Assembly (NCBI GenBank): GCA_963749075.1
Contig: CAVVLJ010000021.1
Location: 160,001-224,000, forward strand
Length of the DNA: 64,000 nt
Source of the DNA: an uncultured Pseudomonadota bacterium
GTDB taxonomy: Bacteria; Pseudomonadota; Alphaproteobacteria; JACZXZ01
Direction of reading: 5' to 3'
Made by a program: the position numbers and the translations under genes. Under the pieces are notes generated by a model, which was not told the origin of the DNA, did no database searches, and saw only the letters and a list, made by a program, of their open reading frames with translations. Positions 21,420 through 48,089 of the stretch are shown in pieces (the first letter of the stretch is position 1; each line of letters opens with the position of its first letter).

Positions 21420-21644
21420 TTACTCCTTCATCAGATGGGACGCAGCACTCTGCCCTGTCCTCTCGTTTACGTACTTTTCGCCGTAGAGCACGATGAACAA
21501 AAGCAGCCAGCCGGCCGCCACGAACCACCAGGACAGCATGCCCCAAAACGTCACGAGGACCGAAAGTGTGAGGACGTAGAAATACAGCATGGCGACGGCA
21601 AAGGTGCCGACGCCGATGAACATGTTCATGTCCGATGCACGCAT
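21420..21644 (-). CDS. Small two-TM membrane protein, LYFY family copy 1 (74 aa)
   Basis: AAGGAG RBS; TTGGCA-16-TACAAT promoter; aligns without gaps to copies at 45188 and 47880. Confidence 0.8.
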   Translation of the reverse strand: MRASDMNMFIGVGTFAVAMLYFYVLTLSVLVTFWGMLSWWFVAAGWLLLFIVLYGEKYVNERTGQSAASHLMKE

Positions 21645-21781
21645 GACGGACTCCTTGCATCGAGAATATTCGATGGATTGTAGCGCATAAAGCACGCCTG
21701 CCAAGGGTAGGAAAATCCGCCGCCCCGGCAGGGCGCCGCCGGGCGCTTCCGCCCGGGCGCCTGCCCGGCTATAAGCTGCCC

Positions 21782-22771
21782 ATGACCCGGCTCTTGGCCC
21801 TTCTCGCCGTCTTCCTCGCGAGCCTCGGCGCCACGCGCCTCGTGCTCGCCTATCTCGAGCGCCACGCCATTCTCGACCACCCCAACGAGCGCTCGAGCCA
21901 TGCGGTGCCGACGCCGCGCGGCGGCGGCCTCGCCCTCATGGCCGTGCTGCTGCCGGCGTGGCTGCTCATAGCCCTCCTCGTGCCGGGGGCGGATCGCGCG
22001 GTCCTGTGGCCGCTCGCCGCGGCGGCACTCCTCGCGGCGGTGAGCTGGCGCGACGACCTGGCGCCGCTCGCGGTCCATCTCCGCCTCCTCGCCCAGGCGG
22101 CGGCCGTCGCCTTAGGCCTCGTCGCCTTTGCCGGCAAGGGGCTGTTCCTGCATGGCCTTCTCCCGTTCTGGCTCGATCGCCTTGCCGGCGGCGTCCTCTG
22201 GCTCTGGTTCCTAAACCTCTTCAACTTCATGGACGGCATCGACGGCATCGCCGGGGCGGAAGCCGCGGCCCTCGGCGGCGGGGTTGCGCTCGTCGCAGCC
22301 CTCGGCGGCTGGGGCGGTGCCATGCCGCTCTACGGCCTGACCGTGGCCGCGGCGGCGCTCGGCTTTCTCGCTTGGAACTGGCCGCCGGCGCGCATTTTCA
22401 TGGGCGACGTGGGCAGCGTGCCGCTCGGCTATCTCCTCGCCTGGCTGCTCCTCGAGCTCGCGACCCGCGGCCTCTGGGCGGCGGCACTCCTGCTGCCGCT
22501 CTACTACCTCGCCGACGCCTCGCTCACCCTGCTGCGCCGGCTCTTGCGCGGCGAGCGCGTCTGGCGCGCCCACCGCGAGCATTTCTACCAGAAGGCCGTG
22601 GCGGCCGGCCTGAGCCACGCCCAGGTGGTGGCGGCGGTGCTCGGCGCCGACGCCGCACTCCTCGCGCTCGCGCTGTGGGCCACCTTGGCGAGACCGTGGC
22701 TCCCGCTGGCGCTCGGGGCGCTCGCCACAGCCCTCCTCCTCGCCTACCTCGGCACCCGCAAGCGCGCCTGA
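21782..22771 (+). CDS. Polyprenyl-phosphate sugar-1-phosphate transferase (MraY/WecA/WbpL family)
   Basis: DHPNERSSHAVPTPRGGG, WRDD, NLFNFMDGIDG, ARIFMGDVGS, AHREHFYQ. Confidence 0.9.
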   Translation: MTRLLALLAVFLASLGATRLVLAYLERHAILDHPNERSSHAVPTPRGGGLALMAVLLPAWLLIALLVPGADRAVLWPLAAAALLAAVSWRDDLAPLAVHLRLLAQAAAVALGLVAFAGKGLFLHGLLPFWLDRLAGGVLWLWFLNLFNFMDGIDGIAGAEAAALGGGVALVAALGGWGGAMPLYGLTVAAAALGFLAWNWPPARIFMGDVGSVPLGYLLAWLLLELATRGLWAAALLLPLYYLADASLTLLRRLLRGERVWRAHREHFYQKAVAAGLSHAQVVAAVLGADAALLALALWATLARPWLPLALGALATALLLAYLGTRKRA

Positions 22772-22871
22772 GCGCGCGGCGCTCGCGGAGCTATTGAGCA
22801 GCGGCCGCCTATGCTATTGTCCCGCCCGCCCAACCGGCGGAATCGCAGCGCTATGTCGTGGCTGCGACGCG

Positions 22872-24845
22872 GTGGCCGGAGAGCGCACGCAGATACCACG
22901 GCACGAGGACGACCGGACGCGCCACTTGAGCCGCATTCTGACCCCAGCCCGCCTCGCCTTCCTCCATGACGTGATCATGGCGGCGCTCTCCTTCGTCGTT
23001 TCGCTCTATCTCCGGGTGGGCGACCTCACTTGGTGGTATCTCGCGAACTACCTGTGGCCCGCCCTGCTCCTCTTCGTGGCGGTCGCGGCGGTGGTCTTTC
23101 TCTGGATGCGCACGGGTCGCGGCGTGTGGCGCTTCATCGCCATGGTCGACCTCCTGACCCTCGCCCAGGCGGTCACCCTCGTCATCCTCCTCTTCCTCCC
23201 GCTGCTTTTCTTCTTCACCCGGCTCGATCAGCTGCCGCGCTCCATGCTGATCATCAACTGGTTCGTGCTCATGGCGCTCCTGGGCGGCCCGCGCATCCTC
23301 TATCGCCTGGCCAAGGACCGCCGCCTCGGCCTCACCCTTGCCAAGACCGGGCACCGCCGCGTGCCCGTGCTCCTGGTCGGCGCCGGCGACGGCGCCGAGA
23401 TGTTCATCCGCGCCATGCAGTACGAGCCCCAGGCGCACTACCGGGTGGTCGGCATCCTCGACGAGAAGGGCACGCGGGTGGGACGCGACATCCATGGCGT
23501 GCCGGTGCTGGGCACCGACCAGGAGCTCGCCGCGGTCGTGGCGCGCTGCGCCGCGCGGGGGCGGCGGCCGGAGCGCCTGATCGTCACCAAGGACAATCTC
23601 GCGGCGAGCGGCCTCAGGGAGCTCTTCGAGGCAGCCGACGCTCTCGGCCTCACCCTCGCGCGCGCGCCGCGCATGAGCGATCTGCGCGCCGGCCTCGCCG
23701 ATACGCTCGAGACGCGGCCGATCGCCATCGAGGATTTGCTCGGCCGGCCGCAGACGGTGCTCGACCGCGCCGGCATGAAGGCGATGATCGCCGGCCGCCG
23801 CGTGCTGGTCACGGGCGCCGGCGGCACCATCGGCGGCGAGCTCGTGCGCCAGATCGCCGAGCTGGCGCCCGCCCGCTTGGCCCTCCTCGACAACGGCGAG
23901 TACAACCTCTACCGCATCGCCCAGGAGCTCGCCGAGCTGGCGCCGGAGCTGGCGCAAGTCGTCCTGCTCGCCGACGTGCGCGAGGGCGCGCACATGGCAG
24001 CGCTTTTCGCGGCCGAGAAGCCGGAGCTGGTGTTCCACGCGGCGGCCCTCAAGCATGTGCCGATGGTCGAGCACAACGCGCGCGAGGGCGTGCTCACCAA
24101 TCTCGTCGGCACGCGCAACGTGGCGGATGCCTGCCACGCGGCCGGCGTCGCCGCCATGGTGCTCATCTCGACCGACAAGGCCGTCAATCCGGCGAGCGTC
24201 ATGGGCGCCACCAAGCGCGCTGCCGAGAGCTACTGCCAGGCGCGCGACATCCTCGCCGCCGCCGGCCGCGGACGCACGCGCTACATCACGGTGCGCTTCG
24301 GCAACGTGCTGGGCTCGACCGGCTCGGTGGTGCCGCTCTTCCAGCGCCAGATCGAGCGCGGCGGCCCGGTGACCGTCACCCATCGAGACATCAAGCGCTA
24401 CTTCATGACCGTGCGCGAGGCGGTCGAGCTCGTGCTCCAGGCAGCCGCCCTCGGCGCCAGCGCCGGCGTCGAGGCCGGCAAGATCTTCGTGCTCGACATG
24501 GGCGAGCCGGTGCGCATCCTCGATCTCGCGCGCCAGATGATCCGCCTGGCCGGGCTCAGGCCCGAGGTCGACATCGCGATCGTCTTCACCGGCTTGCGGC
24601 CGGGCGAGAAGCTCAACGAGGAGCTGCTCCATGCGACCGAGCAGCTCCTGCCCACGCGCTGCCAGGGCATCCTCCTCGCCGCCCCCCGCGCGGCCGATCT
24701 GGCGCTCATCGGCCGCGCCATCGACGAGGCCGAGGAGGCCGTGCTGCGCGGGCGGGACGAGCAGCTCTTGACCCTTCTCGAGCGCATGGTGCCGGAGTAC
24801 CGTCCGGCGGCCGACGGCGCAGAGCGGGCGACCGCCGCGCGATGA
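22872..24845 (+). CDS. Polysaccharide biosynthesis nucleoside-diphosphate sugar 4,6-dehydratase (CapD/WbpM family)
   Basis: N-terminal TMs, [54 protein letters not shown]; start uncertain. Confidence 0.9.
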
Positions 24846-26425: not shown

Positions 26426-26515
26426 GGGGAACGGGGATGGGATAGTGCAGTGGCGGAGCAGGCTTCGCGCGCATTCCAGCCTTCATCGCTCTTCCATTGC
26501 ACGGAGGGGGCGTCG

Positions 26516-27100
26516 ATGCAGAAAAAGCAGAACACCCCGCCGAAAGTGGGCACGGTCATCCACCGCGCAAGAAAGGCGCATGGCTGGACCTTGGAGGAGC
26601 TGGCCAAAAGGTCGGGCGTGTCCCGCTCGATGCTGTCGCAGATCGAGCGCGATCTTACGAATCCGACGTTCGCAACGGTATGGCGCATCACCTCGGCGCT
26701 CGGCCTCGGACTCGAGGGCGTGCTGCCGAGCCCGCAGTCGATTAGAGAGATGAGTCTGTTGCCCGACCATGCGACGCCCGCGCTCGGAAGCGCCGACAGA
26801 AAATGTACCTTGCGCATCCTCGGGCCGATGGAACTGGCGGCCTACGTCGAGTGGTACGATTTCCAGGCCGCGAAGGGAGGCGCACTGATCTCCGAGCCGC
26901 ACGAGGCGGGAACGACCGAGCATCTCACCGTTTTGGACGGCAAGTTCCAGGTGCAGAGCGGCGAGCAGGTGGCGACAGTCGCCGCGGGCGAGACCATCCG
27001 CTACCGCGGCGACCTCCCGCATGCGATCCGCAACCTGCGCGATGCGCCGTCGCGCGGGCTCATCGTGGTCACCCACGCTCCCGCGCAGAACCCGCGGTAG
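26516..27100 (+). CDS. XRE-family HTH regulator with cupin domain (SutR/PuuR-like)
   Basis: [25 protein letters not shown]; [20 protein letters not shown]. Confidence 0.88.
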
Positions 27101-27252
27101 CGGCGCCGCCCGCAGCTCAAATCCGATTGACAGGAAATTTCTCCTATATACTGTAAATGCGGCGCGGCCGCGGGGCGGGGCGGCTTCCGCTTTGTGGCGC
27201 AGCGTCCGGCGAGCGGGCCGGCGATGCCGGTCGGGAATGGGGAACCAAAATC

Positions 27253-28140
27253 ATGAAAGTCACGCTTCTCGGAACGGGAACCCCCACGCCGTCGCTCGTT
27301 CGCGCAAGCTCCGGATATCTCTTCGAGATCGGCGAGGACGTGATCGTCATCGATCACGGGCCGGGCGCCCACCACCGCCTTTTGCAGGCGGGCAAGCGTG
27401 CGGTCGATGTCACGCACCTCCTCTTCAGCCATCTCCATTACGACCACTGCTGCGACTATGCGCGGCTCTTGCTCACGCGGTGGGATATGGGCGCCGACCG
27501 CATCCCCGAGCTCAAGGTCTACGGTCCGGCTCATACGCGGCGGATGACGGAGCTACTCTTCGAGGAGGACGGCGTCTTCGGGCCCGACATCAACGCGCGC
27601 ATCAAGCATCAGGGCAGCATCGACATCTTCGAGAAGCGCGGCGGCAAGCCGCCGCGCAAGTGGCCGAAGCCGGAGGTCGCCGTCGTCAAGCCCGGCTCAG
27701 TCATCGAAGGCGGCGAGTGGCGCATCACCGTGGGCGAAGCGTCGCACGTGCAGCCCTATCTCGAATGCTTCGCCTACCGCATCGACACGAACGACGGGTC
27801 CGTCTGCTATTCCGGCGACAGCGGCGGGGTCTGCAGAAGCGTGATCAAGCTCGCGCAAGGCTGCGACATGCTTATTCACATGAACCACTACTTCAGTGGC
27901 ACCGAACCCACGCCGATCTATCGCGCGGTTTGCGGCAACCATATCGACACCGCCCATGTGGCGAAGGAGGCCGGGGTGAAGACGCTGGTGCTCACGCACA
28001 TGCTGGAGCAGATCGACCGGCCGGGGGTGCGGGAGCAGATCCTGCGCGAGATGATGCAGATCTACGCGGGCAGCATCATCTGGGGCGCCGACCTCATGGA
28101 ATTGACGCTCGCGGCGCCGCGGATGGCGAAAATGGAATAG
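27253..28140 (+). CDS. MBL-fold hydrolase (RNase Z/AtsA-like)
   Basis: LLGTGTP, SHLHYDHCCD, YSGDSG, LVLTH; TTGACA promoter-like sequence ~27127. Confidence 0.85.
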   Translation: MKVTLLGTGTPTPSLVRASSGYLFEIGEDVIVIDHGPGAHHRLLQAGKRAVDVTHLLFSHLHYDHCCDYARLLLTRWDMGADRIPELKVYGPAHTRRMTELLFEEDGVFGPDINARIKHQGSIDIFEKRGGKPPRKWPKPEVAVVKPGSVIEGGEWRITVGEASHVQPYLECFAYRIDTNDGSVCYSGDSGGVCRSVIKLAQGCDMLIHMNHYFSGTEPTPIYRAVCGNHIDTAHVAKEAGVKTLVLTHMLEQIDRPGVREQILREMMQIYAGSIIWGADLMELTLAAPRMAKME

Positions 28141-28271
28141 CCCGCCGGCGCTCGGGCCTTTTGCCCCGCCCCGCGCGATGGCGCGAGCGAATTTGGTTGA
28201 CCGCGCCAGGAAGAGCGGGAAAAGTGGCCGTCGCGCGCGTCCGGCGGCGCCCCGGCCTTGGCCGGCCTGCG

Positions 28272-28324
28272 TTGACAGGACGGCGCGGGTTCGGTATCGT
28301 GAACACCTTCCGATATATCGGAAG
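28272..28324 (+). promoter_or_regulatory. sigma70 promoter plus palindromic operator
   Basis: TTGACA-17-TATCGT, then perfect 18-bp palindrome CTTCCGATATATCGGAAG (28307-28324) overlapping the likely +1. Confidence 0.75.
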
Positions 28325-28389
28325 ATAAAAATCGCGGCCCGCCGAACGGCTCGAAAGAGGCGTGGACGGAGCGGGGGACGGGGAACTGC

Positions 28390-29310
28390 GTGGCGCAAAT
28401 CGCCTTCATCGGGCTTGGCACGATGGGCGCGCCCATGGCGCGCAATCTCCTGAAGCACGGGCATTCCGTGGCGGCGTTCGATTGCTCCGAGGCGGCGCTC
28501 GTCCGCTTCGGCGAGACTCGCGCGCGCATTGCCGCCTCGCCGCTCGATGCGGCGAAGGGGGCGCAGTTCGTCATCACCATGCTGCCCACGTCCGCGGACG
28601 TGCGCGAGGCGATGGCGGGGCCGGAGGGCGCCATCCCGTCGATGGCGCCCGGCTGCATGCTCATCGATTCGACCACGGCGTCGCCGCGCGAATCCATGTC
28701 GCTCGCGCGGCTGCTGGGCGAGCGTGGCTGCAGGATGATCGATGCGGCGGTGGGCCGGCCGCCTTGGGACGCCGAGCAGGGGACATTGCTCTTCCTCGTC
28801 GGCGCGGATGAGGGGGACCTCGCCCACGCGGCGCCGATCCTGCGCTGCATGGGCAACGAGATCATTCACTGCGGGCCGCAGGGGAACGGTGCGAAGGTCA
28901 AGGCGATCAACAATTATATGAGCGTCCTCGGCATGGTGGTGGCGGCCGAGACGCTGGCCTTCGGCAAGACGGCCGGCATCGACCGCGATCTCCTCGTCTC
29001 GGTGCTGCAGAAGACCGTCGCCGGCCGGGGCGCCATCAACGTTCTCTATCCGAAGAAGGTTCTCGCAGGCGACGTGACGCCGCTCTTCGCGATGCGGCTC
29101 GCGCACAAGGATCTCGGCCTTGCCGTCGAATTCGGCGCGGAGCTCGGCGTGCCGCTGGCAACGGGCTCGGCGGCTCGGGCGGTGCTGACCTTGGGCGAGC
29201 CACTGGGAAGGATGGACCAGGACGTGACCAGCCTCCTGCTCGTTCTCGAGGAGATTCTCGGGTCTAGGACGGCGGCTCGCGCGGCGCCGGCCGGGTCGCC
29301 GCCATCATAA
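28390..29310 (+). CDS. beta-hydroxyacid dehydrogenase family oxidoreductase, most like sulfolactaldehyde reductase YihU
   Basis: AFIGLGTMGAPMARNL, KAINNYMS, PKKVLAGD..AHKDLGLA resemble YihU-type motifs. Confidence 0.8.
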   Translation: MAQIAFIGLGTMGAPMARNLLKHGHSVAAFDCSEAALVRFGETRARIAASPLDAAKGAQFVITMLPTSADVREAMAGPEGAIPSMAPGCMLIDSTTASPRESMSLARLLGERGCRMIDAAVGRPPWDAEQGTLLFLVGADEGDLAHAAPILRCMGNEIIHCGPQGNGAKVKAINNYMSVLGMVVAAETLAFGKTAGIDRDLLVSVLQKTVAGRGAINVLYPKKVLAGDVTPLFAMRLAHKDLGLAVEFGAELGVPLATGSAARAVLTLGEPLGRMDQDVTSLLLVLEEILGSRTAARAAPAGSPPS

Positions 29311-29327
29311 GGAAGCGGAGGAGCGTC

Positions 29328-30347
29328 ATGGCACAAGCGGCAGCTCGTTTCGGATCGACCTCGCTCGCGGCTCTATGTTTCGCCTGCGCGGTCATGTTCG
29401 CCTTTTCTTCTGCCGACGCCAAGACCGTCATGACGCTCGCCTACAGCCTGCCGGAAGGCTCGACCTACGACGTGGGCGCCAAGAAGTTCAAGGAGCTGGT
29501 CGAGAGCCGCACCAACGGCGAGGTCGAGCTGCGCATCATCTGCTGCGGGCGGCTGGGAAGCGACGAGGACGAATTCCGCCGCATCGAGGAGGGAAGCCTC
29601 GACGGCGCCATCCTGGGGCTCAACCTGGTCGGGCCGTTCGTCGCCGACGTCGATACCTTCTTCCTGCCGTACATGTTCAAGGACCTGAAGCACCTCGAGC
29701 ACGTGATGCTGGGTCCGATCGGCGCGAAGCTGCACGCGGAGATCCGCGAGAAGACCGGCGTGGAAGTCATCGGCTATACAGACTTCCTCTTCCGCAACCT
29801 CTATAACAGCAAGCGCGACATCAACAGCCTCAAGGACGTGGCCGGCCTCAAATACAGGGTCCCGCGCAACGAGGTCATGATCCAGACCTACCAGGCGTTC
29901 GGTGCCGAGGCGACGCCGCTCGGCTTCGCCGAGACCTTCAGCGCGACGCAGACCGGCATCGTCGACGGCGGCGACCTCGCCGCGATCCACCTCTATCAGT
30001 CCAAAATCTACGAGGTGGCCAAGCACATGGCCGTGACCGAGCATTTCGTCCTGATTTCGGGCTTCTTCGTCGGCGACAAGTTCTTGAGCAAGCTGCCGGC
30101 GAAAACCGCGGACATCATCCGCGCCGCCGGACCCGAGGCCGGGGCCGTCGCGCGGGCGTTCGGCTACAGTACCGAGCGCGACGCGGTCGAGAAGCTCAAA
30201 GCGGCGGGCGTGGTCTTCACCCACCCGGACAAGGCGGAATTCATTGCTGCCGTGAAACCGGTCTGGGACCGCTTCGTCAAGGAGCGCGGCCCGAAGGCCG
30301 CGGAGGTCATCAAGGAGATCGAGGCGACCGCGTCATCGTCGAACTAG
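29328..30347 (+). CDS. TRAP transporter substrate-binding protein DctP
   Basis: Signal peptide; FKELVESRTNGEV, GLKYRVP, TGIVDGGD, YEVAKH. Confidence 0.9.
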   Translation: MAQAAARFGSTSLAALCFACAVMFAFSSADAKTVMTLAYSLPEGSTYDVGAKKFKELVESRTNGEVELRIICCGRLGSDEDEFRRIEEGSLDGAILGLNLVGPFVADVDTFFLPYMFKDLKHLEHVMLGPIGAKLHAEIREKTGVEVIGYTDFLFRNLYNSKRDINSLKDVAGLKYRVPRNEVMIQTYQAFGAEATPLGFAETFSATQTGIVDGGDLAAIHLYQSKIYEVAKHMAVTEHFVLISGFFVGDKFLSKLPAKTADIIRAAGPEAGAVARAFGYSTERDAVEKLKAAGVVFTHPDKAEFIAAVKPVWDRFVKERGPKAAEVIKEIEATASSSN

Positions 30348-30454
30348 GCTCCGGTCTCGAGGGCCGGCGCAGGCTCTTCTTCCGCGCGCGCGGTAATTCA
30401 GGGCGCGCGCCCGGCGAGAGCCCCGCAATCGACCACGACGCCGGACGGTGGAGA

Positions 30455-30991
30455 GTGCGCATTCGAAGGATGCTCAGCCGGGCGCTTGAAGTGATCCGCC
30501 GGAGGGCCGAGGACGTCTTGTGCTCGCTCCTGCTCGTCTTCATCACGGCGATCATCTTCCTCCAGGTCGTGATGCGGTACGTCTTCCACGCGCCGCTCTC
30601 CTGGGTGGACGAGGCGAGCGTCTTCGCCTTCGTGTGGTTCGTCTATCTCGGTGCCTCCCTGGCGACGCGGGAGCGTTCGCACATCCGCGTGCTCAACTTC
30701 ATCCACCTTCTGCCGCCTCGGGCGGCGCTCGCCGCGGTGATGGCGAGCGACCTCCTGTGGCTGGCCTTCAACGCGCTCATGGTCTGGCAGGGTGCCGCGC
30801 TCTTCCGCGACCTCTCCGTGCACCCCTATCTCTCGAGCGCGCTCGGCATCTCCGAGAAATGGCCGTTCCTCGCGGTCCCCGTCGGGTTCCTCTTCGTGGC
30901 GCTCAGGATGGCCGAGGTCTACGTCGATTGGTGGCGGACCGGCCGGCCGCTGACGAGCCCGCTCGAGGGCGGCGAGGCCGCCATTGACTGA
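30455..30991 (+). CDS. TRAP small permease DctQ
   Basis: QVVMRYVF.APLSWVDE, HIRV; four TMs. Confidence 0.88.
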   Translation: MRIRRMLSRALEVIRRRAEDVLCSLLLVFITAIIFLQVVMRYVFHAPLSWVDEASVFAFVWFVYLGASLATRERSHIRVLNFIHLLPPRAALAAVMASDLLWLAFNALMVWQGAALFRDLSVHPYLSSALGISEKWPFLAVPVGFLFVALRMAEVYVDWWRTGRPLTSPLEGGEAAID

Positions 30992-32276
30992 CCTTGCCGT
31001 CGTCTTCGCCGTGCTCTTCGGCGCGGTTGCGTTGGGCCTGCCGGTGCCCGCCTGCATCGGCGTCGCCACGGTGGTCGGCACCTGGCTGACCGGCCTCCCC
31101 CTGATCGGCATCGCCCAGAACGCCTTCGACGGGCTCCAGAGCACAGCGCTCATCACCATCCCGCTCTTCATCCTGGCCGGGGCGCTCATGGAGCGGGGCG
31201 GCATCACGAGCCATATCGTCGCCGTCGCCAAGACGCTGGTGGGCAACTACTACGGCAGCCTGGCGATCGTCGCGATCGTCGGCTGCACCTTCTTCGCGGC
31301 GATTTCCGGATCGGGCCCCGCGACAACCGCCGCGATCGGCGCCGTGACGATCCCGACCATGCTGCGGGAGAACTACCGGCCGGCGTTCGCGGGCGCCGTC
31401 AGCGCATCGGGCGGCGCGCTCGGCAGCCTCATCCCGCCGAGCACGCTCATGATCATCTACGGCATCATCACCAATACCTCGATTCCGAGGCTCTTCCTTG
31501 CGGGGATCGTCCCCGGCCTGATCACGAGCCTGATGCTGGGCTGGACGGCCTGGCTCATCGCCAAGCGCCACGGCTATCGCAGCTCCGAGGAGGCCCTCTC
31601 GCTCGCGCGCTTCCTCGGCGCGCTCCGTCAAGGCAAGTGGGCGGTCGCCGCCCCCGCGGTGATTCTCGGCGGCATATATCTCGGCGTCTTCACCGTGACC
31701 GAGGCCGCCGCCGTCTCGGTCGTCTATGCGCTCGTGGTCGGCGCCTTCGTCTACCGCAGCCTGAGCCGGCGCGGCGTCGCGGAATCCTTGCGCTTCACCG
31801 CCGCGGTGTCGGGGCCGATCCTGGTTCTCTTGGGCCTCGCGCGCGCCTTCGGCGAGGTGATGACCTTGATGGACGCGCCGGACCTCGTCGGCAAGCTCTT
31901 CCTCGGCGCCACGGGCAGCGGCTTCCTCGCCCTGATGGTCGTCGCGGCCGTGCTGATCTTCACGGGCACCTTCATGGAGTCCGCGGCGCAAATCCTGCTC
32001 TTCGTCCCGCTGTTCTTCCCTTTCGTCGTCTCGCTGCACGTCGACCCGATCATCCTCGGACTGATCGTGGTGGCGGCCTGCGAGATCGGATTTCTCACCC
32101 CGCCCGTCGGCGTGAACCTCTTCGTCGGCGCGCGCCTCGCGAATGTCACGCTCGCCGAAATCTCCTATGCCGCGCTCCCCTTTCTCGTTCCCTACATGGT
32201 CATCATCATCTTGCTGGCGCTCGCTCCCCAGATCGCCCTGGTGCTGCCCAATCTCGCATTCGGGTACGCGAGGTGA
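30984..32276 (+). CDS. TRAP large permease DctM
   Basis: IPLFILAGALM, AISGSGPAT, LIPPS, LTPPVGVNLF. Confidence 0.92.
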   Translation: MTDLAVVFAVLFGAVALGLPVPACIGVATVVGTWLTGLPLIGIAQNAFDGLQSTALITIPLFILAGALMERGGITSHIVAVAKTLVGNYYGSLAIVAIVGCTFFAAISGSGPATTAAIGAVTIPTMLRENYRPAFAGAVSASGGALGSLIPPSTLMIIYGIITNTSIPRLFLAGIVPGLITSLMLGWTAWLIAKRHGYRSSEEALSLARFLGALRQGKWAVAAPAVILGGIYLGVFTVTEAAAVSVVYALVVGAFVYRSLSRRGVAESLRFTAAVSGPILVLLGLARAFGEVMTLMDAPDLVGKLFLGATGSGFLALMVVAAVLIFTGTFMESAAQILLFVPLFFPFVVSLHVDPIILGLIVVAACEIGFLTPPVGVNLFVGARLANVTLAEISYAALPFLVPYMVIIILLALAPQIALVLPNLAFGYAR

Positions 32277-32315
32277 AGGCGCGGCGGCGGCGGCGCACGG
32301 ATGGCAGGGCGGCCC

Positions 32316-33605
32316 TCAGCGGTCCTTGCGCGGGGCCGTCCGCGCCGTTGGCGGCGCCTTCACCGTCAGCAGGAGCACGAGCCCCACGGCCAAGAAGGCG
32401 ACGACGCTCGCCATGCCGGCGCGCTGGCTCGCGAAGCGGGCGCTCATGAGGCCGTAGAGCGCTGGACCCACGAAGGCGGTCGCCTTGCCGGTGAGCGCAT
32501 AGAGCCCGAACATCTCGCTCTCCTTGCCGGTGGGTGCCAGGCGCGCCATGAGGGTGCGGCTCGCCGCCTGGGCGGGCCCCACGAAGACGCCGAGCGCGAG
32601 ACCCAGCACCCAGAACCATGGCTTGCTATGGACCGCGAGCACGGCGCTGCCGAGTGCCACGAGTGCCAGGAGCGAGACGACGACCGTCGGCTTGGAGCCG
32701 ATGCGATCGTCGACCCAGGCGAAGAGGAGTGCGCCCGCCCCCGCCGTCGCGTTGATGAGGATGGCGAAGACGATCACCTCCTCGAGGCTGAGGCCGATGG
32801 TGCCCGCGGCATAAATGCCGCCGAAGATGAAGAGAGTGTTGAGCCCGTCGGCATAGATCATGCGGGCAAACAGGAAGCGCAGCACGTGGCCCTCGCGCGG
32901 CAGCCGGCGCAAGCTCGCGGCAAGTTCGGCGAGGCCCTCGCGCACCGCGGTAGCGAGAGCCGTGGCCGTGCGCGGACGGTCCGGCACGAGAAGGAAGAGC
33001 GGCGCCGCGAAGAGGGCGAACCACAGTGCCACGAGGGGTGCGGTGGCGCGCACGGGGCCTGCCGGCACGGCGGCAAGGCCGAAGGGCGGCATCGGCGCCC
33101 TGATGAGGCCGAAGAGGGCGAGGCTCAGGCAGGCGAGCCCGCCCACGTAGCCGAGGCCCCAGCCCCAGCCCGAGAGCCGGCCCAGGCGCTCGGGCGGCGC
33201 CAGGTCGCGCAGCATCGCGTTGTAGAAGACGAGGCCGAACTCGTAGGCGACGCTCGAGAGCGCCACCAGCACGAGGGTACGCGTGGCGGCAGCCGGCTCC
33301 GGCGCCGAGAACCAGAGGAGCGCCGTCGCGGCCGTCGCGACGAGGACGAAGATGGCGAGCCATGGCTTGCGCCGTCCCGCGCGGTCGGCGACGGCGCCGA
33401 GCACGGGCGCCAGGATGGCCACCACGACGCCGGCCGAGGAGAGTGCCGCACCCCAGCGCTCCGCCCCCGCGTCGGGCGATCTGAGGATCGCCGTCGAGAA
33501 ATAGGTGCCCCACACGAAGGTCGCGACCACGACGGGCCAGGCCGCGGCGCCGAAGTCGTAGACGCACCAGGCAGCGGCGGCGGCGGTGCCTCCGCGCAAT
33601 GGCAC
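32316..33605 (-). CDS. MFS transporter, UMF1/Atg22 family
   Basis: AWCVYDF, APVLGAVADRAGRRK, FYNAML..GRLSGWGWGLGYVGG, QAASRTLMARL; GTG start inferred. Confidence 0.87.
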   Translation of the reverse strand: MPLRGGTAAAAAWCVYDFGAAAWPVVVATFVWGTYFSTAILRSPDAGAERWGAALSSAGVVVAILAPVLGAVADRAGRRKPWLAIFVLVATAATALLWFSAPEPAAATRTLVLVALSSVAYEFGLVFYNAMLRDLAPPERLGRLSGWGWGLGYVGGLACLSLALFGLIRAPMPPFGLAAVPAGPVRATAPLVALWFALFAAPLFLLVPDRPRTATALATAVREGLAELAASLRRLPREGHVLRFLFARMIYADGLNTLFIFGGIYAAGTIGLSLEEVIVFAILINATAGAGALLFAWVDDRIGSKPTVVVSLLALVALGSAVLAVHSKPWFWVLGLALGVFVGPAQAASRTLMARLAPTGKESEMFGLYALTGKATAFVGPALYGLMSARFASQRAGMASVVAFLAVGLVLLLTVKAPPTARTAPRKDR

Positions 33606-33607
33606 CG

Positions 33608-36600: not shown

Positions 36601-38500
36601 GCAAGGCGTCGAGGTCGATCGCCGCGCCGTCGGAGCGCACCATGCCGAAATCGTGGAGGTAGACCGCGTCGGCCTCCTGGGGCTCGACGAGGAAGGGCAC
36701 CTCCTGGAGCACGCGCAGGCCCATGTCCTCGAGCATGGGCAGGATGTCGGAGAGCGCCACGGCACCCCGCGCGTTGTAGATCTTGAAGCGCACCTCGTTG
36801 TCGTGCGCCTCGAGCGCACGGTAGAGGTGCATGCCGACGCTTCCTTGGGCGAGCACGGCCTCGATCTTGTCGATGTCGAGGAGGGCGGTATGCGCCGGGA
36901 AGCGCTCGCGGTAGTCGGTCGGGAAGGCGCTGCCGTAGCGGCGCATGAGCTTGAGGCCGCGCTCCTCGCCCTTGCTCTCGACGAGGGCCGCCTTGAGCCT
37001 GTCGCTCCACGAGCGCGCCGCCTCGACGAGTTTCGCCTCGATCTCCGCGACGCGCACGTTGGGCACCTCGCCCGGCGTGGTCGCGACGATGAAGTGCACG
37101 CGCGCGAGCGCCGTTTCGGTGCCGAGCTCGGGCTCGAACTCGCTGATGGTGCCGTTGAGCGCCTCCTCGAGGATGGCGCCGAAGCGCCGGCGCAGCTCCG
37201 TGCTGTAGCGCTCGCGCGCCACGTAGGCGAGGCAGGAGACGAAGCGCTCGAAGGGATCCTTGCGCATGAAGAGGGCGATGCGCTGGCGCTCCTGCAGATG
37301 GAGGATGCCCATGGCGATCTCGAAGAGCTCGTCCTCCTCGATCTGGAAGAGATCGTCGCGCGGATAGGTCTCGAGGATGTGGAGGAGCGCCTTGCCGTCG
37401 TGGCTGTTCGAGGCGAAGCCCGAGCGCTCGACCACGTGGGCCACCTTGTGGCGCAGGAGCGGGATGTCGCGCGGGATGCGGTTGTAGGCGGCCGAGGTGA
37501 AGAGCCCGACGAAGACCCGCTCGCCCGAGACTTCGCCGCCGTCGGTGAACTTCTTGACGGTCACCACGTCGAGATGGGTCGGGCGGTGCACCGTCGAGCG
37601 GCGGTCGGACTTGTTGACGGTCAAGAGCTTGGGCTGGCGGATGAAGGCCTGCACGTCGGGCGGCAGTGCCGACATGTCGCGCCGGCCGCTGAAGATGAGC
37701 TGGGCGTTGTCGCGCAGGATGCCGAGCCCGGTCGCCGGCGTCACCTCCATGCGCGCCCCCTCGCCCTCGCCCGCGAAGTCGTATTCCCGGTAGCCGAGGA
37801 AGGTGAAGTGATCGCCGGCGATCCAGGCGATGAAGGCCTTCGCCTCCGCAAGCTCGGCCGGCGGCAGCGGCAGGCTCACGGCAGCGAGGCGTGCGACGAG
37901 ATCGGCGACGCGCTTCTGCATCGCCGGCCAGTCCTCGACCGCGGCGCGCACGTCGCCGAGCACGCGCGCGAGGTCGGCGCAAATCTCGTGGAGTGCCTCA
38001 GGTGCCGTCTCCTCGTCGATCTCGAGATGCATGCAGGATTCGCCCGCCGCACCCTCCGCCGCCTCGCCGGGTGCCGCGAGCTCGAGGAGGGCGCCGTTCG
38101 CGTCGCGCTTCACGGAGAGGATGGGATGGATCACGAGATGCACCGCGCGCTCGCGGCGATTGAGCTCGGCGGTCACCGAATCGACGAGGAACGGCATGTC
38201 GTCGTTGACGATCTCGACGACGGTGTGGTGCGATTTCCAGCCGTGGTCCTCGAAGCGCGGATTGTAGGCACGGATCTTGGGCCGCCCGGGCTCGCGCACG
38301 CGCGCGAAGCCGTAGAAGGCCATGGCGGCGCCGTAGAGCTGGTCGACCTCGGCCTCCAGCACGTCGTCGGGCACGTTGGCGTAGTATTGGCGGATGAAGC
38401 GCTCGGCCCATTCCGATTTGCCGCGCGGCAGGCGCTCGCGCGCCAGCGCCGCGACGCGCCCGATCTGCTCCTCCTTCGCTCCTTGCGCCCGCGCCGCCAT
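33608..38500 (-). CDS. gdhB: Large NAD-specific glutamate dehydrogenase (GdhB/GdhZ type)
   Basis: DDMPFLVDS, ARGGIRWSDRREDFRTE, YLVVAADKGTATFSD, GIGDMSGDVFGNG, EGANLG, DNSAGV.TSDHEVN. Confidence 0.95.
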   Translation of the reverse strand: MAARAQGAKEEQIGRVAALARERLPRGKSEWAERFIRQYYANVPDDVLEAEVDQLYGAAMAFYGFARVREPGRPKIRAYNPRFEDHGWKSHHTVVEIVNDDMPFLVDSVTAELNRRERAVHLVIHPILSVKRDANGALLELAAPGEAAEGAAGESCMHLEIDEETAPEALHEICADLARVLGDVRAAVEDWPAMQKRVADLVARLAAVSLPLPPAELAEAKAFIAWIAGDHFTFLGYREYDFAGEGEGARMEVTPATGLGILRDNAQLIFSGRRDMSALPPDVQAFIRQPKLLTVNKSDRRSTVHRPTHLDVVTVKKFTDGGEVSGERVFVGLFTSAAYNRIPRDIPLLRHKVAHVVERSGFASNSHDGKALLHILETYPRDDLFQIEEDELFEIAMGILHLQERQRIALFMRKDPFERFVSCLAYVARERYSTELRRRFGAILEEALNGTISEFEPELGTETALARVHFIVATTPGEVPNVRVAEIEAKLVEAARSWSDRLKAALVESKGEERGLKLMRRYGSAFPTDYRERFPAHTALLDIDKIEAVLAQGSVGMHLYRALEAHDNEVRFKIYNARGAVALSDILPMLEDMGLRVLQEVPFLVEPQEADAVYLHDFGMVRSDGAAIDLDALRESFQDAFARIWSGAMEGDGFNRLVLAGGLAWRQVVVLRALCKYLRQTGIAFSQAYMEETLTENPTLARRVVELFLARFDPRRQTDAEVQCAALAKEIEQELDKVESLDEDRILRRFVNLVDAMVRTNYFQTGKDGAPKPYLSFKFDSRKVDELPEPHPLFEIWVYAPRMEGIHLRAGRVARGGIRWSDRREDFRTEILGLMKTQTVKNTVIVPVGSKGGFVLKRPPADGRREAILAEAIECYRTLMRGMLDLTDNIKQGKIIPPADVVRRDEDDAYLVVAADKGTATFSDIANAVSRDEYGFWLDDAFASGGSAGYDHKKMGITAKGAWELVKRHFREAGRDVQSEDFTVVGIGDMSGDVFGNGMLLSEHIRLLGAFNHLHIFVDPDPEPKASLAERRRLFELPRSSWGDYDAKLISKGGGVFERKAKSIRLTPEMRSVFALERDALTPAELVQAMLKAPVDLLWFGGIGTYVKAAEESHAEVGDKTNDALRVDAEELSAKVIGEGANLGVTQRGRVAYALAGGRINTDAIDNSAGVSTSDHEVNLKILLGDVVSRGDMTMKQRDLLLHSVEDEVAAHVLEDNYQQPQTLSVAESEGAALLDDQVLLMRRLEHAGRLNRAIEFLPDDKALAARAAAGKSLVRPELATLMAYAKLDLYDRLLPSDLPDDPTLVEELVRYFPRPLREGHRAAILRHSLRREIIATTVTNDIVDRGGATFVSTLAEKTGMAAADIARAYTITRQAFGLATLWQGIEALDNKVAAALQTTMMVELRRTLERVTRWFLSHGRHPLDVDGFIAGYAPGIARLWARIDEILAPEDRVVFDGKVASYSAKGVPLELARPVAGLDFLVSGCDIVRVAQGEGKTGEGKTGDGKTGGGKAVEEVGRVYFALGVRFGFDWLRAAADSLAVDGHWQKLAVAAIIDDLYAHQSDLVTNVLNGANGKDAAPAADAVAAWVEAHRPVVERAESVIADIKSAGQPDLAMLAVANRQLRQMMAG
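33965..34024. repeat. Four 15-bp tandem repeats within gdh
   Basis: CTTGCCGCCGCCCGT/CTTGCCGTCGCCCGT/CTTGCCCTCGCCCGT/CTTGCCCTCGCCCTG, encoding GEGKT-GEGKT-GDGKT-GGGK. Confidence 0.9.
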
Positions 38501-38744
38501 CGCACATCCTCCCACGCCCGCACCAAGGCCTTTCCGGCCGCAGCCGGCGACACTAGCGGGGAATTGTTACGCGCAATCTACCACGGCGGGAGAGCGAATG
38601 TGAGGGCGCGCATGGCGGGCCAGGCGGCCGTTCGGCTGTCGGGCGCCGCCCATGGGCCTTGCGCACGGGCGAAGCTGAGGACGCGGGCCGCCGCGCCGGC
38701 GCCCGTCATCGAGGGCCGCCGCGGCGGACGCAGCAGTCGCCCGG

Positions 38745-39713
38745 TCAGTTGACCGGAGTGCCGTTCACCGGCGTCCCATCGGTCGTCGTGTTGCCGTTGA
38801 TGCTATTGTTCTTGTACGAATATATCGTGCCGCTACCGGCACCGACGCCGGTGGCGTTGAACGTGATCGTCGAGTTGCCGACGAGGATGGTGGAGCCCGT
38901 GCCGTTCGCGATGACGCCGGTGGTGGCGTTGGCGACGGAGGCGCTACGATCCATCATCAGGAGCGCACTCTGCCCGCCCGCCGGCCCGGTGATGGTGACG
39001 CCGGAGGCGGCGCTGCCCGAGACCACGCTGTCCCGCAAGAGAACCTGGATGCCCGTGCCGGTGCTGCCCGTGCCGTCGGCGGTGAGGCCGGTGGCGTTGC
39101 CGTTGACCTGAATGCGATTGAGCGCGACGCTCGCGGAGCCCGAGCCGGTCGGCTTGACGAGAATGCCGTTGCCGGTGGTGCCGCTGCCGTTGTTCGAGAT
39201 CACCGTGTCCGACACGAAGAGCTTGCTCGCGGCACTCGGCGCGAACTGGATGCCGCTCGCGGCGCCGGCCTGGAAATTCTTGATGACGCAGTTCTGGACG
39301 TGCAGCGCGCTGCCGGTGGTGAAGAGGATTCCGGACAGCCCGGTCCCGAGTCCGTCGATGATGAGGCCGCGCAGATTGATGACATCGTTGGCCCCGGCGC
39401 TGATGACGATGCCATTGGTGCCCGCCACCAGGACGCCCACCGTGCCCACCCCATCGTTGACGATGCTGATCGCTTTGGTGATCGTCAAGGCGCCGAAGCC
39501 GCCGGGATCGAGGGCGTCGATCTCGCCGCCGGCGGCGGTCTTCGAGATGGCGCCCGCGAAGGTCTTGCAGGGCGCCGTGCGGCTGCATGGATTGGCGTCG
39601 TCGCCGACGCCCGAGACCCACGTCCGCGTCGCCTGTGCCATGGCCGGCGCTGCAGGTGCCAGGGAAAGGAGCAACGCTCCCGCCGCCGCCGCCGCTCTGG
39701 CGATCTTGTCCAT
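38745..39713 (-). CDS. Secreted right-handed parallel beta-helix protein
   Basis: Signal peptide then QATRTWVSGVGDDANPCSRTAPCKTFAGA; G/N/S/T-rich beta-helix repeats. Confidence 0.82.
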   Translation of the reverse strand: MDKIARAAAAAGALLLSLAPAAPAMAQATRTWVSGVGDDANPCSRTAPCKTFAGAISKTAAGGEIDALDPGGFGALTITKAISIVNDGVGTVGVLVAGTNGIVISAGANDVINLRGLIIDGLGTGLSGILFTTGSALHVQNCVIKNFQAGAASGIQFAPSAASKLFVSDTVISNNGSGTTGNGILVKPTGSGSASVALNRIQVNGNATGLTADGTGSTGTGIQVLLRDSVVSGSAASGVTITGPAGGQSALLMMDRSASVANATTGVIANGTGSTILVGNSTITFNATGVGAGSGTIYSYKNNSINGNTTTDGTPVNGTPVN

Positions 39714-39914
39714 GGGCCCCTCCCTGGCGCGAAGTTTCGCGGGCGATGTTAGCCGGCTTCATCTTATGGTTGCAAGGGCAAAGGCCGAAACGCCCGTTAT
39801 AGCCGCGCGCGGCCGCGAAATTCACACTCGCCGCCGATTCGTGACGATGGGACTATGGCCAGCTGGCGTGCGGGCGATGGCGGGAAGATGTTAGAGTCAT
39901 AGGGCGGCGGCATT

Positions 39915-39989
39915 TGGAGCGGGAGAAGGGATTCGAACCCTCGACCCTCACGTTGGCAACGTGATGCTCTACCCCTGAGCTACTCCCGC
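39915..39989 (-). tRNA. tRNA-Gly (GCC)
   Basis: GCGGGAGTAGCTCAGGGGTAGAGCATCACGTTGCCAACGTGAGGGTCGAGGGTTCGAATCCCTTCTCCCGCTCCA: cloverleaf, TTCGAAT T-loop, CCA end. Confidence 0.97.
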
Positions 39990-42998: not shown

Positions 42999-43012
42999 GC
43001 CGCGCGCAAGCG

Positions 43013-43792: not shown

Positions 43793-43795
43793 GCG

Positions 43796-45046: not shown

Positions 45047-45187
45047 GACCGCACCATCGCCGACGCCGGGCGGCCTGTCCAGGGGCTGGCGTGGAAGCTG
45101 CCGAGCGCGGAAGCCGGTGCACCTGATGGCCGGGCGGGCAACGCCGCCCTTGTGGCTGCCGCGGCGCGAGCCGCGGCGCGCGGACGC

Positions 45188-45400
45188 TCAGGCCTGGTCT
45201 GCGGCCCGGCGCTGCCGGTGGTTATGAGTACAGGCGAAGTAGAGCGCCCCGGTCACCACCGCCCAGGCGGCAATGACGATATATGCCGAGAGGATGCCGC
45301 TGATCATGGTGATGATCGAAAGGGCGAGGGCGTAGAAGTACAGCAAGGCGATGCCGAACGTGCTGGCTCCGACGAAAAGCTCCCTCAATCCCAATGTCAT
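45188..45400 (-). CDS. Small two-TM membrane protein, LYFY family copy 2 (70 aa)
   Basis: AAAGGA RBS; gap-free alignment to copies 1 and 3. Confidence 0.8.
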   Translation of the reverse strand: MTLGLRELFVGASTFGIALLYFYALALSIITMISGILSAYIVIAAWAVVTGALYFACTHNHRQRRAADQA

Positions 45401-45479
45401 GATCGATTCCTTTCGCTGCTATCTGCTCCGGCTCGCGGAGGGCGGTCCCACTATATTTAGCATAGCGACCAGCCGTTAA

Positions 45480-46106
<627 letters not shown>

Positions 46107-46253: not shown

Positions 46254-47669
46254 ATGCGCCGCACGGCCGCTCTCGCGCTCTTCCTGCTGCTGGCGGCGCT
46301 TGCCGTGGCGGCGTTCGGCGGCGCGGCCTTTGCCCAGCAGGCACCCGCGGCACCGGCCGCGGCCGCCCCGGCCGCCGCCGCGGCGCCGGCGGCGACGCCC
46401 GCACCGCCCAAGATCGATTCCGGCGACACCGCCTGGATGCTCGCCTCGGTAGCGCTCGTCCTCATGATGACCATCCCCGGCCTTGCCCTCTTCTACGGCG
46501 GCATGGTGCGCAAGATGAACGTGCTCTCCACCGTGATGCAGAGCTTCGCCATCACCTGCCTCGTCACCGTGCTGTGGACCATCCTCAACTACTCCACCGC
46601 CTTCACCGCCGGCACCCCCTTCATCGGCGGCCTCTCGCGCTTCCTCCTCCAGGGCGTGGTGAGCGACATCGCCGCCGACACCAAGCTGGTGCCCTCGGTC
46701 AACTCGCTCGCACCCACCATCCCCGAGATGGTCTACATGTGCTTCCAGATGACCTTCGCCATCATCACGCCGGCCCTCATCGCCGGCGCCTTCGCCGAGC
46801 GCATGAAGTTCTCCGCCATGCTGTGGTTCATTGGCCTCTGGGCCACCCTCGTCTATGCCCCCATCGCCCACTGGGTGTGGGGGCCCGACGGCTTCCTCTC
46901 GAGCGGCAACGACAAGGCCGCCGTCAAGGTGCTCGACTTCGCGGGCGGCACCGTGGTGCACATCAACTCCGGCGTCGCCGGCCTCATGTGCGCCCTCATG
47001 CTGGGCAAGCGCAAGGGCCTCGGCACTGAGCACATGGCGCCCCACAACCTGGTGCTCACCCTGATCGGCGCCTCCCTCCTCTGGGTCGGCTGGTTCGGCT
47101 TCAACGCCGGCTCCGCCGTCTCCGCAGGCCTCCAGGCCGGCATGGCCATGGCCGTCACCCAGATCGCCACCGCCACCGCCGCCCTCTCCTGGATGTTCGT
47201 CGAGTGGGCCTGCAAAGGGAAGCCGAGCGTGCTCGGCATCTGCTCCGGCGCCGTCGCCGGCCTCGTCGCCATCACCCCCGCCTCCGGCTTCGTCGGCCCC
47301 ATCGGCGCCCTCGTCATCGGCATCGTCGCCGGTGCGGTGTGCTACTGGGGTGCGGTGTGGCTCAAGGGCAAGATCGGCTACGACGACGCCCTCGACGCCT
47401 TCGGCGTCCATGCCGTGGGCGGCATCGCCGGCGCCCTCTTGACCGGCGTCTTCGCCATCCAGCAATACGGCGGCACCGCCGGCCTCATCGAGGGCAACCC
47501 AGGCCAGGTCCTGAACCAGCTCGAGGGCATCGTCATCGTCATCGTCTACGACGCCATCGTGAGCCTCATCCTCCTCAAGATCATCGACGCCACCATCGGA
47601 CTGCGCGTCAGCGAGGAGATCGAGCGCGACGGCCTCGATCTCGCCCTCCATGGCGAGGTCGTGCAGTAG
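46254..47669 (+). CDS. amtB: Ammonium transporter AmtB
   Basis: GDTAWML, FQMTFAIIT, DFAGGTVVHI, WFGFNAGS, DDALDAFGVH; start uncertain (46137 possible). Confidence 0.96.
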   Translation: MRRTAALALFLLLAALAVAAFGGAAFAQQAPAAPAAAAPAAAAAPAATPAPPKIDSGDTAWMLASVALVLMMTIPGLALFYGGMVRKMNVLSTVMQSFAITCLVTVLWTILNYSTAFTAGTPFIGGLSRFLLQGVVSDIAADTKLVPSVNSLAPTIPEMVYMCFQMTFAIITPALIAGAFAERMKFSAMLWFIGLWATLVYAPIAHWVWGPDGFLSSGNDKAAVKVLDFAGGTVVHINSGVAGLMCALMLGKRKGLGTEHMAPHNLVLTLIGASLLWVGWFGFNAGSAVSAGLQAGMAMAVTQIATATAALSWMFVEWACKGKPSVLGICSGAVAGLVAITPASGFVGPIGALVIGIVAGAVCYWGAVWLKGKIGYDDALDAFGVHAVGGIAGALLTGVFAIQQYGGTAGLIEGNPGQVLNQLEGIVIVIVYDAIVSLILLKIIDATIGLRVSEEIERDGLDLALHGEVVQ

Positions 47670-47693
47670 ACGCCGAGCGGCACGCCACGCGCC

Positions 47694-47722
47694 AACGGCC
47701 CGGCCGCCATGGCCGGGCCGTT
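47694..47722 (+). terminator. Hairpin terminator after amtB
   Basis: AACGGCCCGGCC-GCCAT-GGCCGGGCCGTT followed by a short T-rich tail. Confidence 0.6.
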
Positions 47723-47879
47723 TCGCTTGCCCGCCTGGCGAGCGCCTGCTCGTGCGGCCCGCGGCCGGCCGCCCTTCCGCAACGCCGGTGAAACCGCAAC
47801 GATGCCCGGGGATCAATGCCTGGGGATCAGCCGGCGCAGCCGCAGCTTCGCCGCGAGCGCCGGCCCAGCGACCGGAGGC

Positions 47880-48089
47880 TCAGGGAATTCCCGAAGTCCG
47901 CAGCTTCTGATCGAGGCGCTTCTCGTAATAGAGCACCCCGAAGAGGAGGAGCCAGGCGCCCACCACGATGTACCACGGCAGGCCGCCGTTGAGCACGACA
48001 ATGATCGACAAGCTCAAGGCGTAGAAATAAAGGAGGCAGATTGCGAATACGCCGACGCCGACAAAGAGACCCGCGACCACGTTTTTCAT
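47880..48089 (-). CDS. Small two-TM membrane protein, LYFY family copy 3 (69 aa)
   Basis: TTGCAA-18-TATAGT promoter ending 8 nt before ATG; gap-free alignment to copies 1 and 2. Confidence 0.8.
   Translation of the reverse strand: MKNVVAGLFVGVGVFAICLLYFYALSLSIIVVLNGGLPWYIVVGAWLLLFGVLYYEKRLDQKLRTSGIP

Follow-up and report, generated by a model that had tools for sequence, protein, structure and literature searches.

A family of small hydrophobic proteins in separate intergenic gaps

What does a protein of about 70 residues do when its gene occurs three times, in three unrelated gaps between housekeeping genes, within a short stretch of a bacterial chromosome? The question is raised by a 64,000-nucleotide (nt) stretch of the genome of an uncultured alphaproteobacterium (contig CAVVLJ010000021.1, positions 160,001 to 224,000; hereafter the window), which carries three paralogous genes for hydrophobic microproteins, denoted copies A, B, and C (Table 1). 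The best explanation, to which we assign a probability of roughly 0.45, is that the family is lineage specific and serves the inner membrane as an oligomeric, nonenzymatic accessory or scaffolding subunit, rather than being a toxin, phage holin, or mobile element.

The proteins encoded by the three minus-strand open reading frames (ORFs) align without gaps from the first methionine to residue 67, in agreement with a preliminary description of the window. That description listed 16 invariant residues; all of these hold, and the initiator methionine makes 17 (M1, F9, G11, F15, L20, Y21, F22, Y23, L25, L27, S28, G35, L37, V42, W46, L53, and Y54). No charged residue is found at positions 9 to 54 in any of the three copies. 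The longest mechanically delimited ORF of copy A opens at a TTG codon at position 21704 (94 amino acids), and the ATG at 21644 gives 74 amino acids. The ATG, which the preliminary description had also used, is the better start because all paralogs and orthologs begin there, because a promoter-like site fills positions 21704 to 21677, and because AAGGAG lies 6 nt before it. The likeness of the three proteins is not due to chance, because their profile picks up a further, independent copy in this genome and 31 matches in congeners.

The GC content at the first, second, and third codon positions is 0.49/0.37/0.80 in copy A, 0.52/0.48/0.82 in copy B, and 0.57/0.34/0.80 in copy C, in a window of 68.8% GC. 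Judged from the DNA, this pattern is typical of translated genes that encode hydrophobic proteins, and it accounts for the local dip in GC content at the copies. Copies A, B, and C thus appear to be genuine genes, with coding well supported by codon-position GC, by purifying selection, and by the presence of the family in all six genomes of the genus.

Narrow distribution and purifying selection

When the profile of the three copies was run over the complete 5.49-Mb assembly (hmmsearch, six frames, unfiltered), it yielded exactly four copies. The fourth, copy D, lies on another contig (C4:397160-397345; E = 1.8e-26), and three of the four fall within 27 kb. A six-frame search found the family in each of the six genomes of the genus: the five congeners contain 5, 6, 11, 4, and 5 matches at 24 loci, with the 31 E values ranging from 1e-15 to 1e-37. 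The same kind of search found no member in five genomes that represent four further genera of this family and order, the whole order comprising only 11 genomes. In an even sample of 401 genomes across the class, 398 of them outside the genus, a single match came from outside the genus (genome G392; E = 8.4e-4 per genome, inside a 364-residue frame), and it is regarded as noise because 398 genomes were searched. A hidden Markov model search of 1.84 billion representative proteins recovered seven members of 63 to 131 residues; the family is therefore narrow and without fusion to any other domain. A word-indexed protein search returned five proteins, the query itself among them. Another 53 loci were identified in metagenome contigs. 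The sequencing runs that contain the stretch are labeled soil metagenomes, and the contigs from three soil DNA runs are identical over it, with no joints found. The family appears to be confined to one uncultured alphaproteobacterial soil genus.

No named family could be assigned. In Pfam, NCBIfam, PHROGs, and PADLOC, nothing exceeded the cutoff or had an E value of 0.001 or less, and a profile search of PDB returned a single match (E = 0.68). Copies A, B, and C showed no match at E values up to 10 to PF04964 Flp_Fap, with its G/xxxxEY processing region, or to PF01679 Pmp3/UPF0057. Foldseek comparisons of predicted models (a four-helix tandem form against PDB and the single hairpin against viral models) produced no match with an E value of 0.001 or less, the top rows being generic helical bundles, and the ESM Atlas yielded a top score of 0.85 with no named family. 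The portions of the literature that were covered contain nothing on the family, its LLYFY motif, or a Flp-pilin partner of this kind. The family thus seems to be undescribed, with no relative in any searched library, and its earlier characterization as a stand-alone, lineage-specific, unrecognized family stands.

To gauge selection, dN/dS was estimated by the Nei-Gojobori method within groups of copies that share a genomic context. All 50 pairs had a ratio below 1, and 49 of them fell below 0.5; the lone higher value is based on 4 synonymous and 11 nonsynonymous differences. It ranged from 0.10 to 0.48 among C-type (mutL) copies (15 pairs), from 0.19 to 0.38 among D-type copies between the YebC and YmdB genes (10 pairs), from 0.18 to 0.42 at the EthD locus (9 pairs, of which the 3 involving genome G003 compare paralogs, not orthologs), and from 0.14 to 0.85 among A-type copies (15 pairs of copies at different loci, a group that is not strictly orthologous); the only B pair gave 0.42. 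These values point to purifying selection along the entire length of the protein.

Maximum-likelihood trees were built from 33 rows (one of the two G003 EthD copies left out) and, by a quick method on few columns, from 84 rows. Subfamily I comprises the D-type copies and a fast-evolving B-type branch, subfamily II the C-type copies, and subfamily III the A-type copies. All six genomes of the genus contain subfamily II; five contain subfamily I, and five contain subfamily III. The dS among the four copies of this genome is 0.84 to 1.41. Copies A, B, and C are old paralogs and not the product of a recent local burst, because each is closer to copies from other genomes than to its neighbors in the window. 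Of the lineage-specific expansion postulated in the preliminary description, the multicopy state of the family is supported, but a recent expansion within the 64 kb is not: three old subfamilies are involved, and the DNA similarity among the window copies ends at the coding sequence.

A predicted hairpin and natural tandem fusions

Residues 8 to 33 and 39 to 55 are hydrophobic and uncharged. The mean number of lysines plus arginines per sequence is 1.03 in the N-terminal tail, 0.27 in the loop, and 3.39 in the C-terminal tail, and both ends are predicted to be cytoplasmic because the basic residues concentrate in the tails. AlphaFold2, run on a 33-sequence alignment, predicts a helical hairpin (residues 2 to 34 and 40 to 65) with a predicted local distance difference test (pLDDT) score of 75.7, consistent with the two transmembrane helices and the uncharged core described earlier.

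Members with a single unit are 64 to 78 residues long. In-frame, head-to-tail doubles of 130 to 131 residues were found at three loci (in two genomes) and at 7 of the 53 metagenome loci, and one is present in the protein library; they are predicted to form four helices (pLDDT, 69.0; predicted template modeling score, 0.56). The two halves of a double would have the same orientation because the 12- to 13-residue basic linker is cytoplasmic in the predicted topology. From these natural doubles we infer that the single-unit proteins form parallel dimers or larger oligomers. All faces of helix 1, which contains the invariant midmembrane stretch LLYFY.L.LS, are conserved (mean entropy, 0.84 bits; helical periodicity absent, P = 0.59), and in helix 2 the conservation lies on a single face (P = 0.018). 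The all-round conservation of helix 1 fits an oligomer core built of this helix.

The proposed mechanism is as follows. The ~70-residue protein would insert into the inner membrane as a hairpin of two helices whose N and C termini face the cytoplasm, and the paralogs would assemble as parallel homo- or hetero-oligomers. Helix 1, with its LLYFY.L.LS stretch, would be buried in the oligomer core; helix 2 would lie outside, with one conserved face. The leading candidate for a specific partner would be the membrane pool of Flp (Tad-type) pilins.

Orphan flp genes as recurrent neighbors

ORFs of 63 codons next to family genes match Pfam Flp_Fap with E values of ~1e-16. On the same strand and no more than ~300 nt away, such an flp gene accompanies the family gene at 6 of the 24 congener loci, compared with ~0.04 expected by chance according to our own arithmetic, and likewise at 15 of the 53 metagenome loci; the congeners carry 6 to 13 flp genes each. 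In the 84-row tree, the flp-adjacent copies are spread over all three subfamilies, and well-supported branches force at least five changes of the flp label. The order of the two genes varies: flp comes first next to A-type copies (including all doubles with upstream sequence) and one C-type copy, and the family gene comes first in the B-type arrangement. The copy at the EthD locus retains a remnant of an flp 3' end upstream. The gap between the FAD-monooxygenase gene and glnK occurs in three states, namely, with B only (this genome), with B and flp (G004 and four metagenome contigs), and with flp only (G002, G003, and G005). Units that join flp with a family gene are among the ~0.7- to 1.1-kb segments that recur at several congener loci with 80 to 87% DNA identity. 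Flp pilins appear to be the only partner candidate to which the data point.

These observations invite a more specific reading, in which the microprotein is a dedicated partner of orphan Flp pilins. The hairpin would bind the hydrophobic Flp helix as a holder, a reservoir, or a modulator of assembly or retraction, and its gene would travel with flp as a two-gene module. Same-strand adjacency across all three subfamilies, the two gene orders, the flp remnant, and the alternating states of the FAD-monooxygenase-glnK gap all speak for such a partnership. Conversely, an flp neighbor is lacking at most copies, among them the four of this genome, and no copy was seen near a cluster of three flp matches on contig C17, which may be the main pilus locus. 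In addition, two small multicopy genes could merely use the same insertion-prone gaps, and duplication of the module inflates the adjacency counts. We therefore consider a dedicated partnership doubtful. Equally doubtful in our judgment is the broader proposition that the family is an undescribed inner-membrane part of Tad/Flp pilus biology, with a hairpin that holds or meters the Flp pool and that coevolves and coduplicates with the orphan flp genes.

A separate observation concerns the pilins themselves. In 16 different orphan Flp prepilins encoded in congeners and metagenome contigs (for example, L020:1828-2019, L057:3304-3495, L098:906-1097, L110:239-430, and L119:585-776), the mature part is near-invariant from the GVTAIEY region on, and the leader peptides of ~18 residues differ widely. 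Several flp genes thus appear to feed one mature pilin.

Predicted expression signals and the resemblance to membrane-permeabilizing peptides

One sigma-70-like site lies directly upstream of each of copies A, B, and C, compared with 0.1 to 0.3 in shuffled sequences (Table 1). The predicted leader of copy A is ~25 to 30 nt long and carries AAGGAG 6 nt ahead of the ATG, and AAAGGAA is found 6 nt ahead of the ATG of copy B, in line with the ribosome-binding or promoter-like sequences previously ascribed to each copy. The second hexamer of the copy C site stops 8 nt before the ATG, and five C-type orthologs carry TAAGAT or TAAGCT 8 to 11 nt before the ATG, within a conserved block. Because the second hexamer ends 8 to 11 nt from the start codon, C-type mRNAs are probably leaderless or nearly so. 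Each family gene is predicted to be its own transcription unit. No promoter-like site was detected on the plus strand in scans around A, B, and C, and an Rfam search over the whole window returned tRNA only.

Could these genes instead encode membrane-permeabilizing peptides, either type I toxins silenced by an undetected RNA or pinholin-type pore formers for lysis, release, or stress dormancy? The preliminary description had listed type I toxin-like and holin-like peptides among its options, and the architecture is partly compatible with both. Class II holins and pinholins, such as S21 of phage 21, have ~70 residues, two helices, both ends inside, and a charged C-terminal tail, and they act as oligomers. 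The family resembles them in its size, its predicted helical hairpin, and its charged C-terminal tail, although the helix-and-tail feature is not specific; the predicted topology, with both ends inside and a basic tail, corresponds as well. Moreover, all three window copies show weak matches to PF07332 Phage_holin_3_6 (A, 11.8 bits; B, 16.6; C, 14.1; E = 0.0084 to 0.26), and A-type copies have a second methionine at residue 6, which may resemble dual starts. However, the Phage_holin_3_6 scores are far below the cutoff of 28.4 bits, the best PHROGs E value is 0.0022, PADLOC gave no match up to an E value of 1, and the comparison of the hairpin with viral models produced one Arthrobacter phage holin at an E value of 0.88. 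No endolysin, spanin, or phage gene, and hence no lysis cassette, was found by Pfam among the neighbors in the window or at 13 related loci, all of which were housekeeping genes, and the same contexts recur in the 53 metagenome loci. Unlike holins, the family has 4 to 11 chromosomal copies per genome with housekeeping-like promoters.

With type I toxins such as Hok, TisB, Ldr, and Ibs, the family shares small size, high hydrophobicity, multiple copies, intergenic location, a narrow taxonomic range, and, if the inferred oligomers form, oligomerization in the inner membrane. A size of <60 residues and, usually, one membrane helix are given for these toxins (PMC12648545); the family proteins have 64 to 78 residues and two helices. 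They also differ in their short or absent leaders, the 8 to 11 nt of the C-type leaving no space for control by a long structured leader, and in the lack of any detected antisense promoter-like site. The near-consensus sense promoters, the 4 to 11 constitutive-looking copies per genome, the stable in-frame doubles, and the purifying selection over the whole length further disfavor a toxic product. A permeabilizing function is accordingly judged unlikely.

Genomic context and turnover of sites

Pfam annotation of the neighbors places copy A upstream of the same-strand genes DUF3576-leuS and divergent from a family-4 glycosyltransferase gene (Glycos_transf_4), copy B upstream of a same-strand FAD-dependent monooxygenase gene and divergent from glnK-amtB (P-II and Ammonium_transp), and copy C convergent with amtB and divergent from ftsK-lolA. 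The divergent housekeeping neighbors named in the preliminary description were correctly identified; it overlooked the same-strand genes downstream of A and B and the convergence of C with amtB. Relatives of the window copies elsewhere adjoin mutL/GluQRS, YebC/YmdB, and other cytoplasmic housekeeping genes.

The occupancy of these gaps differs between genomes at otherwise syntenic sites. The window is collinear with one G003 contig from 17.3 to 47.7 kb. The gap between DUF3576 and the glycosyltransferase gene contains no copy in any of the five congeners and spans ~260 to 320 nt there versus 552 nt here. The amtB-ftsK gap is likewise without a copy in G001, G002, and G005, the three congeners in which both flanks are assembled (691 to 786 nt versus 965 nt here); G004 is outside this comparison, and the 989 nt after amtB in G003 contain no family copy either. 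Instead, the C-type copies of the five congeners and eight metagenome contigs lie directly downstream of mutL, and the homology of this genome to the congener mutL loci stops at the mutL stop codon. Copy D occupies the YebC-YmdB gap, as D-type copies do elsewhere, and copy B has positional orthologs between the FAD-monooxygenase gene and glnK in G004 and five metagenome contigs. The placement of A or C was seen at none of the 53 metagenome loci.

Such a distribution could suggest a self-propagating or passively mobilized small cassette, the dispersal of which would reflect spread and not a cellular function, an option also raised in the preliminary description. The gaps that lack A and C in the congeners, the absence of these placements from the metagenome loci, the location of C-type copies after mutL elsewhere, and the recurrence of ~0.7- to 1.1-kb units (flp plus a family gene, or a family gene plus an orphan ORF of 207 to 217 codons) at 80 to 87% DNA identity are in line with mobility. 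Nevertheless, no terminal inverted repeats, direct repeats, or target duplications bracket A, B, or C, no transposase or recombinase gene was found among the window neighbors by Pfam, and the copies have no flank in common. DNA similarity among the window copies is limited to the coding sequence, and that between copy C and the mutL-side copies is limited to 171 nt of it. The copies are old paralogs (dS, ~0.8 to 1.4), and the purifying selection acting on the protein speaks for a role in the cell. Differential loss of copies from an ancestor that had many fits equally well; across six genomes, the site turnover seems compatible with relocation and differential loss alike. A mobile cassette is thus quite unlikely, and a gene that spreads itself, as envisaged earlier, finds no support at these sites.

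The suggestion that the copies locally regulate the adjacent WecA-like transferase, AmtB, and FtsK, for which their divergent or convergent arrangement with membrane protein genes speaks, is highly improbable, given that the same gaps are empty in congeners, that the closest relatives of A and C adjoin cytoplasmic housekeeping genes, and that only the B site is common to another genome, where the conserved neighbor is flp.

Other features of the window and related loci

The positions of the three copies, their promoter-like sites, and the GC-rich repeats at the ends of copies A and B are compiled in Table 1.

Table 1. Positions of family genes and associated predicted features in the window
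Feature	Position	Strand	Description	Basis
Copy A	21420..21644	minus	74 residues; subfamily III (A-type)	ORF, alignment, codon-position GC, tree
Copy B	45188..45400	minus	70 residues; ATG start; fast-evolving B-type branch of subfamily I	
Copy C	47880..48089	minus	69 residues; ATG start; subfamily II (C-type)	
Promoter-like site of copy A	21677..21704	minus	TTGGCA, 16 nt, TACAAT; 10/12	1 found versus 0.2 expected in shuffles
Promoter-like site of copy B	45450..45479	minus	TTAACG, 18 nt, TATAGT; 9/12	1 found versus 0.1 expected
Promoter-like site of copy C	48098..48127	minus	TTGCAA, 18 nt, TATAGT; TG before second hexamer	
GC-rich inverted repeat	21350..21408		12 nt 3' of the copy A stop; may terminate transcription or insulate the DUF3576-leuS promoter block that follows	
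Overlapping GC-rich palindromes	45165..45215		Across the copy B stop, ahead of the FAD-monooxygenase gene	

Around copy A, a block of ~65 nt upstream of DUF3576-leuS (positions 21275 to 21340) is near-invariant in all six genomes, and the remainder of the gap is unalignable. By eye, the block holds TTGATC, 16 nt, and TATCAA on the minus strand, and it is probably the promoter or operator of the DUF3576-leuS operon. Next to copy C, two tandem 14-nt units (13 of 14 positions identical; positions 47802 to 47829) lie between its stop codon and the end of amtB. The region upstream of ftsK (positions 48300 to 48600) is AT-richer (GC, 0.50 to 0.56), carries no assigned gene, and contains a second minus-strand promoter-like site (48434 to 48407) and an inverted repeat (48392 to 48405 with 48578 to 48591).

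Positions 26426 to 32330 and 38502 to 39914 have no counterpart in the collinear G003 contig, with ~5.9 kb here versus ~0.7 kb there. The second of these segments is bordered by a minus-strand tRNA-Gly(GCC) gene (39915 to 39989). Positions 33608 to 38566 on the minus strand form a very long ORF of 1,653 codons from stop to stop, with a third-position GC of 0.94.

In other genomes, an orphan ORF of 207 to 217 codons follows some A-type copies (for example, L046:4357-5010; also L019, L020, L023, L025, and L052 and the metagenome loci L098, L105 to L108, L111, L114, and L115). It matches nothing in Pfam, NCBIfam, or PADLOC and is not present in this genome; together with the microprotein gene, it makes up a ~1.1-kb unit found at several loci with 80 to 87% DNA identity. 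Beside copy D (contig C4:394732-397125; L004:1-1460), the last 58 codons of ymdB occur twice, in the full gene (394732 to 395571) and in a fragment (396952 to 397125), and the ~1.4 kb between them holds a fragment of a DUF4143-type ATPase gene. The arrangement resembles the outcome of an insertion with duplication of the ymdB 3' end.

Discussion

An oligomeric accessory or scaffolding subunit has to be weighed against several findings that do not favor it. Two helices, a charged C-terminal tail, and a length of 64 to 78 residues also describe the class II holin architecture, all three window copies weakly match Phage_holin_3_6, and two midmembrane tyrosines could line a pore. The models of the hairpin and the double reach only moderate confidence by pLDDT. 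The link to Flp pilins is weakened in that few of the adjacencies are independent events, because many are copies of one duplicated flp-microprotein module, which supplies much of the A-type signal, and in that, in this genome, the flp matches closest to any family copy lie at distances of 37 kb and 82 kb.

Several known groups of small membrane proteins offer partial parallels to the proposed subunit. The Pmp3/YqaE-type proteolipids (UPF0057) are two-helix hairpins of 50 to 60 residues with several paralogs per genome and no enzymatic motif, and they are thought to modulate membranes; unlike them, the present family gives no match to the corresponding Pfam model, has another conserved motif, and occurs in one genus as opposed to a range from bacteria to plants. 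YiaAB and DUF308/HdeD proteins, which are widespread and longer, likewise have a two-helix unit that can be single or repeated head to tail within a protein; the present family does not match them in sequence and is narrower and shorter. The 72-residue, two-helix, divisome-associated YmgF of Escherichia coli is similar in size and predicted architecture and is among the nearest named ESM Atlas clusters, but its score of 0.78 is within the chance range that the Atlas itself gives, the sequences do not match, and a connection with division genes is absent beyond the chance position of copy C beside ftsK in this genome.

The narrow taxonomic range and the uncultured host limit the general impact of these findings. 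Nonetheless, small membrane proteins are underannotated, few have a known role, and the present family is an unusually clean case. The turnover of a 0.3-kb gene among syntenic housekeeping gaps is documented here without recognizable mobility machinery. Furthermore, the natural tandem fusions point to the likely oligomeric unit, and flp, a statistically unexpected neighbor, offers a testable partner for this lineage-specific family.

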